Shown here piece by piece: positions 3,096 through 7,575 of a DNA stretch of 64,000 nucleotides; positions within the stretch are counted from its first letter, which is position 1; each line of letters starts with the position of its first letter. The notes under the pieces are model-generated. The model had not been told where the DNA came from. It saw only the letters and a list, made by a program, of their open reading frames with translations, and did not search any database. The stretch comes from an uncultured Methanospirillum sp. (GTDB taxonomy: Archaea; Halobacteriota; Methanomicrobia; Methanomicrobiales; Methanospirillaceae). Location: positions 24,662 to 88,661 of the forward strand of contig CAZUXC010000001.1 of assembly GCA_964624045.1 (NCBI GenBank), given 5' to 3'. The position numbers and the translations under genes are program-made.

Positions 3096-4394
3096 TTAAA
3101 ACCGGATCTCCATAACCGCTTTTTCTTCTTCGTTAAGCATCTCCTGAAGATGTCGTGTCTCTGGTTGATACAAACCCATTGGATCATAATCCGGATAGAG
3201 ATCACATTTATCCAGTACATCCACAAACTCCTTGAGAAAGAGACGGGGAATAACATCAATCCGCCCTCCAAATGCTGAACTCACCCGGCTCACCATGATT
3301 CGGATGAACCGGTTGGATATGCGGTCATGGTCAACCTCGCCGTACGCCCGTTCATAGACATCGCAGACTTTCCGGGCTACTTCCTCAAGACGGGAAGGAT
3401 CAAACGGAGGTAAACAGATCTGAGGCTGTCGAGGGTTGGGATATCTTTCATCTGATGATATCTGCCCTATACGATCAAAGAGAGGCGTTATCGGCCTCAT
3501 CCCACGTGGGCCATCATAGAGCATGGGCGTTCCGGCACAAATGAGATACCACCCGGGAAGCAATCCTCCATCAACGGCATCAATAATTCTGACAAGATTT
3601 TGAAATCCCCGCTCACGAAGATTCCGGGGGAAGGTCTGGGTAATTTCAAGTTCATCAATCGCAACCACGCATCCCCGATACCCTGCTCCACGTATAAAGA
3701 TGGGAAGTGCCTGAAGAAGTGACATAACAGATGAGTCCTCAATATCGCCCCGTATTCCTGCCTTCTGTTTTAATTCACGCCCAATATTTGGATCCCCGGA
3801 GAGCCAGCCTATAGCTGCCTGAGAAATCCGAAAATTTGCTGCATTATTTGCAAGATAATAGGTCCTTATTACTGCTGCAACCGGAACGCTCAGAATACTG
3901 ATCGTTGAGAGCCCTTCCTCAATTTCCTGGATCGTAAGTTCTTCAAGTTTTGCAGGGGAAATGTCAGAACCCTCCCGGGCAATAACCCGCTCTTCGATCC
4001 CATAGAGCCACGCATCAATGATCGATCGAAATGCGTGTTGCTCTCCTCCGGCATGAAGAGAAGATAATATCTGTGCATATATTGAGCGGAGCCGGTGTAA
4101 TGGAGTTATGGGAGAGATCGCAATGTGTGCGGTGACAAAACCTTTCTTCCGGGCAAGTTCCAGAGCCCGGGCGATCAGAAATGTCTTCCCACTCCCATAT
4201 TCTCCCCGGATAAATTTGAGATCTGAACCACCACGGCTGACAAGATCCATCTGATCTGCTATCACCTGTTCTTCAACATCCAGGCCAACAGCAAAACGGC
4301 CAAGTCCCTGCGCTGGAACTGTCCCTCTCCGGAGTGCATTAATAATCCCAACACTCTCCAGAATATCTTGATTCGACAAGTCAGGGGCCGACAT
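3096..4394 (-). CDS. brxD: BrxD-like / DUF2791 P-loop ATPase
   Basis: INALRRGTVP..GL..FAVGLD N-terminal signature, Walker A IRGEYGSGKT, TPLHRL, Walker B VVAIDELE, C-terminal PRLFLKEFVDVLD. Start refined to ATG 4394 (MSAPDL), preceded by strong SD GGTGAGGTG and overlapping the upstream stop by 14 nt. Confidence 0.85.
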   Translation of the reverse strand: MSAPDLSNQDILESVGIINALRRGTVPAQGLGRFAVGLDVEEQVIADQMDLVSRGGSDLKFIRGEYGSGKTFLIARALELARKKGFVTAHIAISPITPLHRLRSIYAQILSSLHAGGEQHAFRSIIDAWLYGIEERVIAREGSDISPAKLEELTIQEIEEGLSTISILSVPVAAVIRTYYLANNAANFRISQAAIGWLSGDPNIGRELKQKAGIRGDIEDSSVMSLLQALPIFIRGAGYRGCVVAIDELEITQTFPRNLRERGFQNLVRIIDAVDGGLLPGWYLICAGTPMLYDGPRGMRPITPLFDRIGQISSDERYPNPRQPQICLPPFDPSRLEEVARKVCDVYERAYGEVDHDRISNRFIRIMVSRVSSAFGGRIDVIPRLFLKEFVDVLDKCDLYPDYDPMGLYQPETRHLQEMLNEEEKAVMEIRF

Positions 4395-6171
4395 ATCGAT
4401 ACACCTCACCAAATTCCGAGTATCCATCCTTCTCGATTAGATGAACACCATATTCTTCTGCTCGTCGCATAATCCGATTCATGAGTCCGGCAATCCGATG
4501 AGTTCCGGAGATTTTACGAAGATCCAGTTCATTACAGACCCTATGCTTCTGAAGATAGAAAATGATCATCTCTTCTTCTGGTGATAGCCACGAGAAGGAA
4601 GGAGATGAAAGTGGCACCTTCATGATGTGATTTTCCTGGTTTCGTTGATGAAGATATTCAGGGAGATGATCAGGGAGTGTCTGATCTTTACATGCGATGA
4701 GAAGAGCAAACAGGGTATTGGCAACCTGAACTGAATCGGCAGGAACAATTGATAAACCTGAAAGGGCAAAATCAAGCCCTTCATCCGGATGGCCACTCGA
4801 AAGGGCAGAATCAGATGCGATAGACAGAATTCTGGCATAGATTTCTTTTCCATCCATAGAGAGTGAAGTAATTCTCTCTGAAAGCCGATAGAGCATAAAT
4901 GCGATCACCTCATCATCACAGAGAGATAAGTCCAGAATTTTTTTTCCGATAAATGCGATATCCCGGGTATTTTTCAAAGTTTTCAGGATATACATCAGGG
5001 TTTTTGTCTGTTCCCTGGTTTCTCCTCTCCTTCCAAGATATAGAACATACTCAAAGCCGGACTTCACAAGATCAGATTTGAAGGCGGTGAAATACTGCCG
5101 CCGTGCATCTTCATGACGCCCGAGGCCTTCACATATTCGCCCAACGTCAGTTATTAAGGCCGGGTGGTGTTCTGATGATAAAAGAGAAAGCATATGGTCA
5201 CATGCCCCATGCAAGTCATACACCTGTTTTAACAGATCCTGATAAAGGGAGAATACCGATCTGATATCCGGATAATCAGCACTCTTCTCGTGAAAGAGCA
5301 TCTCTTCTGCTAAGGAGAGTGCATGCGGGCAGTTGCCAGCCGATTGAAATAGTGATACTCCCATCGCACGAAATTCGGGGCACGTACTTTTCGAAAGGTG
5401 AGACGACCAGAGCTCGCATGCTTCAGATAATCGACCCTGGAAGGACAAGAATGAGATATATCGTTCAATAGGATGATCGCCATCAACTGTTTCGATGAGA
5501 GAGATGAACTCCTGTTCGGCCATTACCGGGCTTGTGCCTGCAAGTGCTTCAGCATAAAGAAGCCGAATTTCAGGGTCAGTTCTGGCAGATGAGTTACCCC
5601 TATAAATCCGGATAATCTCGTCATACTGTCTGACAGAGGAGAGAAGAGAAACATACGATTTGACACACGAAATAGGGGATCCAGCCCTGATATATGCCAA
5701 CATTCCTTCCTGAGCGCGATCCAGAGCCAGGCAACAATTCATAAATGCGGATAGATCATCAGGGCAGGTATCCAGAGTTACAAGTTTTTTGAGAAGAGGG
5801 AATGCTGCTGCATTATCACCGGCATTCATGAGATACCGGATATACCCCCGGATAGCTTCCGGGTGATCCGGGGCAAGCCTGACTGCTTCTGCATATTCAG
5901 ATCTCGCTGATTCATCCAATCTTTTCTCAAGGATTTTTGCCAGATACAGGGAGATATCAACAGAAGATGGAACCCGGGCTTTGAGATCCCGCAGACAAAT
6001 CTCTGCTTCCTGAAATTCTTCAAGATTGTACAAACATACAGCTTCGAGAATTCTCACCGGTGTCGGACAGATATGGGGAGGTATCTTTCTGATGAGACTG
6101 CAGCACTCCTGGTACTTTCCTTGTTCAAAGAGGAGAAAGGTTCTGTTCTGAAGAGAATTACTATCATTCAT
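4381..6171 (-). CDS. TPR-repeat protein with C-terminal winged-helix domain
   Basis: TPR-like helical repeats (LYNLEEFQEAEICLRDLKARVP; YAEAVRLAPDHPEAIRGYIRYLMNAGDNAAA; CEGLGRHEDARRQYFTAFK). The last ~69 aa have a helix-HTH-wing pattern. Start refined to ATG 6171 (MNDSNS), in an ATGAATGA overlap with the upstream stop. Confidence 0.7.
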   Translation of the reverse strand: MNDSNSLQNRTFLLFEQGKYQECCSLIRKIPPHICPTPVRILEAVCLYNLEEFQEAEICLRDLKARVPSSVDISLYLAKILEKRLDESARSEYAEAVRLAPDHPEAIRGYIRYLMNAGDNAAAFPLLKKLVTLDTCPDDLSAFMNCCLALDRAQEGMLAYIRAGSPISCVKSYVSLLSSVRQYDEIIRIYRGNSSARTDPEIRLLYAEALAGTSPVMAEQEFISLIETVDGDHPIERYISFLSFQGRLSEACELWSSHLSKSTCPEFRAMGVSLFQSAGNCPHALSLAEEMLFHEKSADYPDIRSVFSLYQDLLKQVYDLHGACDHMLSLLSSEHHPALITDVGRICEGLGRHEDARRQYFTAFKSDLVKSGFEYVLYLGRRGETREQTKTLMYILKTLKNTRDIAFIGKKILDLSLCDDEVIAFMLYRLSERITSLSMDGKEIYARILSIASDSALSSGHPDEGLDFALSGLSIVPADSVQVANTLFALLIACKDQTLPDHLPEYLHQRNQENHIMKVPLSSPSFSWLSPEEEMIIFYLQKHRVCNELDLRKISGTHRIAGLMNRIMRRAEEYGVHLIEKDGYSEFGEVYRYVGP

Positions 6172-6856
6172 AAGAGAGCAGACCAAGGCGGAGCCGAATA
6201 AGCGTAGTGAACATCGAGAAGGCATCAGAAGGCTGAAGTCTTGAATCACCCGTATCATCCCAGACAGATGGCGTTTCAAACACCCGGAAGCCTGCTCTCC
6301 GGAGCTGCCAGAGGAGTTCAACATCAAATTCAAATCCTCTTGCACAAAGTTGAGGCATCACCCGATCAATAGCCTCTTTACGAAAAACCTTCGCACCACA
6401 CTGGGTATCATAGTAGGGAAGGGAGAAGAGTAGCCGGATGAGAAGATTAAATGCCCGACTCTGAAAACGGCGTAATAGTGGCTGATGGATCTTTATCTGA
6501 GATCCCGGCATATGCCGGGATCCAATAACCCCGTCATACACTCCCACCATAGATAGCAACCGGTGCATCTCCTGATATGGAGTGGAATTATCAGCATCCA
6601 TAAACCCGATAAGCGATGAAGTAGCTGCTCGAAAGCCTTCATAAACTCCTCCCCCTTTTCCAAGTCTATGATCATACGTCAGGCATCTTACGGTGAGATC
6701 GGGATGGGAATCCGCAAAATCGCGTATAACTTCAGGAGTTCTATCTGAACCATCACATACGAAGATAAATTCTGCCTCCGGGTCAGAAAGTGCTTTGAGC
6801 AGTCTTCCTATCCGATTCTCTTCATTGTATGCCGGTATAATGATACTATATTTCAT
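6164..6856 (-). CDS. GT2 glycosyltransferase, dolichyl-phosphate hexose synthase (DPM/Alg5)-like
   Basis: SIIIPAYNEE, DGSDRT, GKGGGV, FMDAD (DxD), GSR, DTQCGAKVFR, FEFDVELL. Confidence 0.88.
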   Translation of the reverse strand: MKYSIIIPAYNEENRIGRLLKALSDPEAEFIFVCDGSDRTPEVIRDFADSHPDLTVRCLTYDHRLGKGGGVYEGFRAATSSLIGFMDADNSTPYQEMHRLLSMVGVYDGVIGSRHMPGSQIKIHQPLLRRFQSRAFNLLIRLLFSLPYYDTQCGAKVFRKEAIDRVMPQLCARGFEFDVELLWQLRRAGFRVFETPSVWDDTGDSRLQPSDAFSMFTTLIRLRLGLLSYE

Positions 6857-6975: not shown

Positions 6976-7383
6976 TCATCGCAGCATAAATGATGCGCTA
7001 CAGCGTGCAAGTTCTGTCATTCCATCCTGACTCAAAATTTTCCCTTCGGTGAATATGATCTGTCGTCCTTTCCGGATAACTTCTGCATCCGCAATGATTG
7101 TTTCATCTGCCCTGACCCCGCGAAGAAAACTCGTTGTGCACGATATCGTAGCGATCATCTCCCCCTCGCGAAGAAGAGTGTAGATGGCAAGTGCCATACT
7201 CTCATCAACCAGAGCCGTATACATCCCGCCCTGCAGCCACCCTTCCCCATTAGTCATATCAGGACGAACTTTCATCTGAAGACGAGCCTTTCCGTCCCCC
7301 CAGGTAATCGGTTCGATCCCCATGAGACAAAAGAATGGATTTGCCTGCTGACCTTTCTGATTGATATCATCAAGATATGACAT
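6976..7383 (-). CDS. PaaI-family (hotdog-fold) thioesterase
   Basis: NGEGWLQGGMYTALVDESM, TISCTTSFLRGV, EVIRKGRQIIFTEG; ATG at 7383 preferred over TTG 7392. Confidence 0.85.
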   Translation of the reverse strand: MSYLDDINQKGQQANPFFCLMGIEPITWGDGKARLQMKVRPDMTNGEGWLQGGMYTALVDESMALAIYTLLREGEMIATISCTTSFLRGVRADETIIADAEVIRKGRQIIFTEGKILSQDGMTELARCSASFMLR

Positions 7384-7575
7384 CGTGTACAAGGCTTAAC
7401 CGGTCCGATGGAAAAATCTGACGGTACCTCCGGACATTTCAGCCATAGCAATTATTTCTTTCATTAGTCAGGAGATATTCATGAATAACCTTCGAGTACC
7501 TATCTTCTCCATACGATCGTCGGATATTAGAGGGATCATAACCAACTCTTCTGCTGAGTTTTCTGAGGGTAGGGT

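Follow-up and report, generated by a model that had tools for sequence, protein, structure and literature searches.

ATPases of the DUF2791 family (BrxD, SngB and others) are required parts of the BREX type 2 and Shango systems and of several unnamed ones. According to a 2026 survey of BREX (PMC12839542), BrxD is a stand-alone AAA+ ATPase of the ORC/Cdc6 clade that has no DNA-binding or regulatory domain and whose role is uncharacterised, and the C-terminus of the type 2 PglZ protein forms a three-stranded winged helix-turn-helix (wHTH); in the sections consulted, the survey makes no connection between that wHTH and BrxD. The way in which DUF2791 ATPases connect with the other parts of their systems is addressed here through the tail of a partner protein, a C-terminal wHTH of 69 residues on a tetratricopeptide repeat (TPR) protein encoded directly before BrxD in a methanogen. 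The two genes lie in a stretch of 64,000 nucleotides (the window) of an uncultured Methanospirillum sp. (assembly GCA_964624045.1, contig CAZUXC010000001.1, positions 24,662 to 88,661 of the forward strand). All positions are given in window numbering, and the tail and the TPR, BrxD and family 2 glycosyltransferase (GT2) genes are all on the minus strand.

We found that the tail belongs to a family of C-terminal wHTH domains, and it is well supported that this wHTH is portable across different head domains and tightly coupled to BrxD. With a probability of about 0.55 the tail is a handle that couples its head to BrxD, possibly serving as an in-trans winged helix of this ORC/Cdc6-like ATPase.

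The tail domain and its relation to the type 2 PglZ C-terminus

The tail and the two genes that meet in it comprise the following features.

4381-4590, minus strand: three-stranded winged helix that ends the TPR protein (residues 528-596), with the TGA stop (translation, AlphaFold2, Foldseek, family profile search)
4453-4497, minus strand: invariant Arg (R559 of the protein, R32 of the 69-mer), then helix H3 IAGLMNRIMRRAEE including G562 (family alignment, helix limits of the model)
4393-4437, minus strand: beta-hairpin wing, with b2 IEKDGYS and b3 GEVYRY (DSSP on the model, sequence)
4402-4410, minus strand: Shine-Dalgarno-like GGTGAGGTG for brxD, within the wing codons of the wHTH (read from the sequence)
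4381-6171, minus strand: TPR-wHTH protein of 596 aa (Pfam matches TPR_14, ANAPC3 and TPR_19; homologues of 594-596 aa)
3096-4394, minus strand: BrxD/DUF2791 ATPase of 432 aa (Pfam PF10923, 4.9e-112; PADLOC BrxD, 1e-113; NCBIfam BREX_BrxD, 376 bits with a cutoff of 350)

The minus strand of 4381-4590 translates to the 69 aa quoted in the initial annotation and a TGA stop at 4383-4381, and the plus strand across the same positions is closed by many stops. The open reading frame (ORF) is listed as 4381-6345, and its true start was set at the ATG at 6171 (MNDSNS...) because 13 Methanospirillum homologues measure 594-596 aa. TPR repeats occupy the N-terminal third of the protein, a helical body comes next and the wHTH is last. 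AlphaFold2, run on the last 74 aa with a 19-sequence alignment, gave a model with a mean predicted local distance difference test score (pLDDT) of 93.5 and a predicted template modelling score (pTM) of 0.82, in which the elements follow the order H1-b1-H2-H3-b2-b3 of a three-stranded winged helix (in 69-mer numbering H1 4-16, b1 18-20, H2 21-28, H3 33-46, b2 52-58 and b3 61-66). The layout read from the sequence in the initial annotation (a helix, a helix-turn-helix (HTH), a long G..N helix, an LIE strand and a beta wing) agrees with this model. A Foldseek search of the PDB returned 1077 matches at E <= 10, and the top matches were exclusively winged-helix domains (MarR/BpsR, the Z-beta domain of DAI, Nse1/MAGE, ScpB and the cullin WHB), with probabilities of 0.97-1.00, template modelling (TM) scores of about 0.6 and a best E-value of only 8e-3. 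As modelled, the tail clearly has a winged-helix fold, with no close solved relative.

The 69-mer alone had no match in Pfam, PADLOC or NCBIfam, a phmmer search of PDB sequences with it returned noise only, and a word-indexed homologue search with the tail found Methanospirillum proteins only. An exhaustive search was therefore run with a profile of archaeal and myxobacterial tails against 1.84 billion representative proteins (E <= 1e-3). It gave 147 matches, about 130 of which are true members after removal of LuxR-type and repeat matches. In almost all of these members the wHTH ends within 10 residues of the C-terminus, and the family shares the signature R-x2-G-x12-G-x15-Y, in which the Arg before H3 is present in 100% of the 130-sequence alignment, the Gly three positions on in 98%, the Gly after H3 in 95% and the Tyr in b3 in 92%. 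The window tail has all four residues (R559, G562, G575 and Y591). The matches dropped from the family were weak ones at the bottom of the list, being LuxR-type HTHs or repeats (P0369, P0375, P0367, P0374, P0333, P0290, P0278, P0339 and P0306).

Profile comparisons with hhalign connect this family to type 2 PglZ. The archaeal tails matched those of myxobacterial PglZ proteins (probability 94.6%, E 6.7e-8, 71 columns), the myxobacterial tails matched the canonical PglZ-2 tails (95.5%, E 1.4e-8, 57 columns), and the 130-sequence family with the window tail included matched 50 canonical PglZ-2 tails (93.6%, E 2.1e-7). A direct comparison of archaeal-only with canonical tails was not significant (P 0.037), with the register the same, and the link required intermediate sequences. 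In the canonical motif RLGGxxxxLxxxLNVDGY the Arg, Gly, Leu, Leu and Gly of the family stay in register. An intermediate was found in a Caldilineales locus (L024), whose BrxD is closer to the archaeal BrxD than any other bacterial one; there the PglZ frame, past an in-frame stop, runs into an archaeal-type tail (ARLLQALAHRGEASEDELRRDLGTRRIAGLL...GAIYRF, with the GTRRIAGL motif of the archaeal type) that ends just before BrxD. On these profile comparisons the tail is homologous to the C-terminal domain of type 2 PglZ, so that the suggestion of a similar small wHTH at the end of that protein, made in the initial annotation, was borne out (hhalign 93.6-95.5% and the L024 tail); the PglZ domain itself had already been published, as PMC12839542 documents.

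In the Caldilineales metagenome-assembled genome (L024 4690-4925) the reading LEPS*ARLLQAL places the stop exactly where the archaeal-type wHTH begins; it may reflect an error in sequencing, a pseudogene, read-through or a tail that is truly split. A profile search of PDB sequences also gave a weak match to HTHs of the LuxR/GerE type over H1-H3 (best match DosR, E 0.02). Over the corresponding part of the window (4453-4590) the family profile is weakly LuxR/GerE-like (L-x2-x-E ... T-V-K-like turn), which suggests a possible origin of the tail from the LuxR/GerE class of HTHs with a wing added.

Heads, gene order and ATPase phylogeny

The family contains at least six unrelated heads, namely TPR, PglZ, a superfamily 1 (SF1) helicase-nuclease-FHA protein, a beta-helix, an AT-hook-like repeat and a McrC-like nuclease. 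The proposal in the initial annotation that the wHTH is a portable module on different heads is well supported by these unrelated heads and by the co-variation with the ATPase clade described below. Apart from TPR and PglZ, the family search found the following heads.

DUF4011-SF1 helicase-restriction endonuclease-FHA head, 1678-1877 aa
DUF2357/PD-(D/E)XK (McrC-like) head
Parallel beta-helix head
AT-hook-like repeat head
Uncharacterised proteins of 445-480 aa: a PglZ_C-like module, a beta-hairpin, then the wHTH

Proteins of the last kind (P0295, P0305 and P0327; loci L092 and L095) combine the PglZ_C-like module and the conserved hairpin (..v.vPf.L.p.Er) with a wHTH of the GTRRvGGL type and have no PglZ phosphatase domain; P0295 is a 191-aa fragment with the same module order as P0305 and P0327. 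They thereby have two related winged helices in tandem. In precomputed lists of a newer Pfam release, PglZ_C (PF25863) is found on P0305, P0327 and P0318, and only TPR families are listed for the archaeal TPR-wHTH proteins. PF25863 probably models the C-terminal wHTH of type 2 PglZ.

Genes ending in this wHTH are found next to brxD. Around BrxD relatives 80 genome loci were fetched and the ORF ending at the BrxD start was read. A wHTH-ended ORF abuts BrxD in 73 of the 78 loci with upstream sequence, all of them loci found through BrxD, and the remaining 5 have a PglZ with a wHTH module within 5 kb, separated by an insertion in four cases and on the opposite strand in one (L054). All 20 archaeal loci have a TPR protein of about 600 aa with the same tail before BrxD; in about 50 bacterial loci the protein is a BREX-2 PglZ of 900-1000 aa with a conserved tail (...L.AL..RGGKL....LA..LG.p..RlxG.....RR.LNVDGY.VL..d....tv.LN..LL..QF). 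In three myxobacterial PglZ proteins the tail is visibly archaeal-like instead of canonical. In the window the last codons of the wing hold the ribosome-binding site and the start codon of brxD, and with its ATG at 4394-4392 this gene overlaps the TPR-wHTH gene by 14 nt; homologues of the window BrxD are also 432 aa long.

Among family members that were picked without reference to BrxD, a BrxD is encoded downstream in 5 of the 7 informative cases, though the BrxD family is rare in genomes.

P0356, helicase-FHA head: BrxD overlaps by 4 nt, and an Lhr-like helicase is next
P0288, AT-hook-like repeat head: BrxD overlaps
P0337, beta-helix head: BrxD overlaps by 7 nt, with no helicase after it
P0318, PglZ head: BrxD lies 173 nt downstream
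P0296, beta-helix head: BrxD follows after two small genes
P0316, McrC-like head: no BrxD within 6 kb
P0327, head of unknown kind: no BrxD on a 4.6-kb contig
P0305, head of unknown kind: context uninformative

The subtype of the wHTH tracks the clade of the ATPase and not the head. In a maximum-likelihood tree of BrxD the SngB proteins split off deeply as a clade of their own, and the canonical PglZ-2 loci make up another. The archaeal BrxD proteins fall together with that of the Caldilineales PglZ locus whose tail is of the archaeal type (support 100/97), with a beta-helix locus next. The helicase-FHA locus is nested in the group of myxobacterial PglZ loci of the same tail subtype (100/99), and the canonical PglZ-2 loci form the sister clade of this combined group (100/99). 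Such a pattern is expected of a functionally coupled cassette.

A few loci show other arrangements. In the BREX-2 locus of a Granulicoccus (L029 4567-4971) a 134-aa ORF, PemK/MazF-like by eye at its N-terminus, lies between the PglZ wHTH and BrxD. In L096 (5001-8125) a beta-helix-wHTH gene and an overlapping BrxD, with no helicase downstream and with MutS2 and histidine kinase genes adjoining, make up a two-gene unit that is the counterpart in a bacterium of the TPR-BrxD pair of archaea. P0313 (L106 1671-1904) is a 77-aa ORF consisting of the wHTH only, with its own ATG, between a beta-helix gene and the BrxD start, and the ORF after it begins MSSTLNLSKEVATTIINALRNGTVPPEG, the N-terminal motif of BrxD; P0313 could be a case in which the module occurs naturally on its own. 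P0316 (L091 4278-6422) is a DUF2357/PD-(D/E)XK protein with a wHTH that has no DUF2791 gene within the 6 kb searched, and in this case the wHTH may also serve other ATPases, for instance an unannotated 841-aa protein encoded upstream.

The Shango tail and the methanogen locus

SngA proteins of Shango end in Pfam TerB_C up to the last residue, and the SngA gene abuts sngB. Type 2 PglZ and SngA had both been described in the initial annotation as encoded just upstream of their DUF2791 ATPase, which is indeed the case, mostly with overlapping stop and start codons. When AlphaFold2 was applied to the 125 C-terminal residues of SngA, the model showed a disordered linker followed by H-b-H-H-b-b-H (helices 55-64, 72-81, 86-101 and 117-124, strands 69-71, 106-109 and 112-115; pLDDT about 90), and Foldseek matched this model to winged helices, in a set that overlaps with the one returned for the window model. 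Comparison of the family profiles with SngA tails by hhalign was not significant (P 0.0018-0.09, probability <= 15%), and even the best link, for which 19 diverse tails were used, four of them archaeal, stayed below significance (P 0.0018, probability 14.9%). Pfam TerB_C (PF15615) did not match the window tail, taken as 69 or as 99 aa, at E <= 10, and it matched the SngA tails at 2e-17 to 5e-27. Two residues of the family signature, the invariant Arg and the second Gly, are missing from the SngA tail, which has a net charge of about -12 (archaeal tail +3, canonical PglZ-2 tails 0). Such strong acidity speaks against DNA binding as a function that all these tails have in common. In literature searches on DUF2791/TerB and on Shango we found nothing on the tail.

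The supposed similarity of the Shango TerB-C tail thus holds for the three-stranded wHTH of the model and for the position of the gene, and does not extend to significant profile similarity or to the signature residues. The initial annotation had proposed comparing the segment with PglZ-2 and TerB_C profiles and structures; this comparison yielded profile similarity to PglZ-2, no significant one to TerB_C, and a fold shared with SngA.

The same genome also encodes a complete Shango-like system on contig C17 (L099 5655-12351, minus strand), which adjoins a PAS histidine kinase gene and contains the following genes.

SngA, TerB_N-TerB-TerB_C, 1055 aa
SngB, DUF2791, 440 aa (1-nt overlap)
DEAD-box helicase, 728 aa

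Within the phylum the distribution of TerB_C is patchy, with only 5 of 401 genomes having it. The BrxD family PF10923 occurs in 65 of 121 genomes; it is found in all those sampled from three Methanomicrobiales families and is almost absent from the others.

Methanoregula, Methanolinea and Methanocorpusculum have BrxD homologues at about 56% identity. The archaeal BrxD proteins form a monophyletic clade, with a branching that tracks family taxonomy, and the gene order around the archaeal BrxD homologues is conserved (pyrG, a small TPR protein, a thioesterase, a 76-aa ORF, GT2, TPR-wHTH, BrxD and hisD). Between the three archaeal families the wHTH is 47.8% identical, the TPR body 27.9% and BrxD 54.0%; the wHTH is the best-conserved part of the TPR-wHTH protein and is not a chance feature. 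The locus as a whole is not of the BREX type 2 or Shango kind, since it has neither PglW/X/Y nor a SngC/BrxHI helicase, its neighbours are GT2, thioesterase and hisD in conserved synteny and its distribution is not patchy. The TPR-wHTH/BrxD pair of Methanomicrobiales is a vertically inherited syntenic locus and not a defence island. It would represent a defence-derived cassette that was turned into a fixed core locus in three methanogen families.

The pair is preceded in the window by one more gene of the same run.

6164-6856, minus strand: GT2 glycosyltransferase, first gene of the GT2/TPR-wHTH/BrxD run (Pfam Glycos_transf_2, 1e-22)

The GT2 stop and the TPR-wHTH start overlap by 8 nt. The two genes are coupled in translation, and the order GT2/TPR-wHTH/BrxD recurs in Methanoregula loci. 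A 4HBT thioesterase is encoded at 6976-7392, upstream of GT2. Both GT2 and the thioesterase are kept in the Methanoregula loci that were checked (no GT2 was called in L001), and these conserved neighbours hint at a link of the BrxD pair to glycosylation or lipid metabolism.

Possible roles of the tail and comparison with known systems

The observations on gene order, heads and phylogeny are consistent with a tail that serves as a handle for BrxD. The cassette of wHTH and ATPase is inherited and exchanged as a unit, with the head being swapped, and the head protein would most likely engage the BrxD oligomer through the wHTH. In doing so the wHTH may act in trans as the winged-helix domain that initiator-type ATPases normally have in cis, and a ligand of the TPR head could thereby be coupled to ATP-driven BrxD activity. 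A direct contact between the wHTH and BrxD is presumed here, and any DNA-binding role of the wHTH would be equally presumptive. More tentatively, we propose that the wHTH, of about 65 residues, is a dedicated in-trans adaptor of an ORC/Cdc6-like ring and defines a class of systems "X-wHTH + BrxD (+/- Lhr-like helicase)" in Bacteria and Archaea, in which heads are exchanged and the tail co-evolves with the ATPase, with the TerB_C of Shango as an extremely divergent acidic member and the GT2-TPR-BrxD operon of Methanomicrobiales as a domesticated, non-defence one.

Several observations weigh against a handle for BrxD. P0316 (a McrC-like nuclease) and P0327 (on a short contig) are not adjacent to BrxD, and no natural wHTH-BrxD fusion was found among the 147 family matches. 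The SngA tail, as modelled, shares only the fold with the family, homology not being demonstrated. The archaeal tail is mildly basic (net charge +3, pI about 9.2) and has its invariant Arg just before the recognition helix, and H1-H3 are weakly LuxR/GerE-like (E 0.02); DNA binding may be the main role of the tail. The main rival explanation is that an ordinary DNA-binding winged helix places the head on DNA and that adjacency to brxD reflects operon inheritance only, with no specific contact to BrxD. This is essentially how the type 2 PglZ wHTH is read in PMC12839542, where such terminal domains are treated as DNA- or macromolecule-binding modules, and the MarR-like fold, the net charge of +3 in both the archaeal and the myxobacterial type, the conserved Lys/Arg that flank H3 together with the invariant Arg, and the weak LuxR/GerE-like profile match are in line with it. 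Nevertheless, the charge is not conserved, as canonical PglZ-2 tails are neutral on average (range -5 to +6), and the module, across five or more unrelated heads, is always found at the extreme C-terminus and immediately ahead of BrxD. The fact that the subtype follows the ATPase clade instead of the head, and that the wHTH remains beside BrxD even where it is split from its head (L024 and P0313), also speaks against operon inheritance alone, and we consider this explanation unlikely.

Regulators of the wHTH type are common at defence loci, and the tail could be an autoregulatory domain that represses the promoter of its own operon, as the separate wHTH regulators BrxR or CapW do at other such loci. 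However, the tail is fused to large proteins and not free-standing, the methanogen locus is a conserved housekeeping neighbourhood in which the pair lies behind a GT2 gene, no operator-like repeat was seen (no search for one was made), and the tight co-variation with the ATPase would be left unexplained, so that autoregulation seems very improbable. Only slightly more credit can be given to an independent acquisition of the TPR, PglZ-2 and SngA tails as unrelated winged helices that are alike because the fold is very common. The extreme abundance of this fold, illustrated by the 1077 Foldseek matches in the PDB, would fit such an origin, as would the relation of SngA to the family at the level of the fold only, with its hhalign P values of 0.0018-0.09, missing signature residues and net charge of -12. 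For the TPR and PglZ-2 tails it is contradicted by the profile links of 93-95%, by intermediates such as the GTRRIAGL tail of L024 and by the common R/G/L/L/G register.

The type 2 PglZ wHTH was already known, as is clear from PMC12839542. A conserved tail that travels with the ATPase gives a concrete interface hypothesis within a domain of 70 residues, and the signature of the family provides a means to find further systems of a wHTH-ended protein with BrxD. The presence of two DUF2791 ATPases in one genome, each with its own kind of partner tail, makes the specificity between tail and ATPase directly testable.

Compared with known domains and systems, the tail resembles the HTHs of MarR, its best structural match (TM about 0.6), and of LuxR/GerE, the best profile match over H1-H3 (DosR/GerE, E 0.02). 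Unlike these it has neither the dimerisation helix of MarR nor the fourth helix of GerE and is fused to large proteins that are not regulators, and neither match is significant. The analogy with Orc1/Cdc6 initiators is that a winged-helix domain supplied by the partner would restore the pairing with an AAA+ domain that BrxD lacks. In contrast to these initiators, the wHTH is on a separate polypeptide, with its gene before that of the ATPase and not after a lid domain; no Orc1/Cdc6 winged-helix domain was among the top 50 Foldseek matches of the tail model, and no sequence similarity to one was shown. Like the TerB_C of SngA, the tail has an H-b-H-H-b-b wHTH and ends a protein whose gene lies immediately upstream of one for a DUF2791 ATPase (SngB in Shango), whereas the SngA tail has an extra C-terminal helix and SngB forms a deep clade apart in the ATPase tree. 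The closest resemblance is to the PglZ-2 tail, with which the window tail shares the fold, the position at the extreme C-terminus, a gene that overlaps or abuts brxD and the register R-x2-G ... L ... L ... G. It differs in being carried by a TPR protein and not by a PglZ phosphatase (the 596-aa protein matches TPR families only and has no alkaline-phosphatase-like domain of PglZ, PF08665/NCBIfam BREX_PglZ_2), and in belonging to a divergent subtype (GTRRvxGxvNRl ... GEvYxY). In contrast to BREX type 2, the window locus contains no other BREX genes and no helicase, and the archaeal TPR-wHTH/BrxD pair is vertically inherited in three families of Methanomicrobiales.

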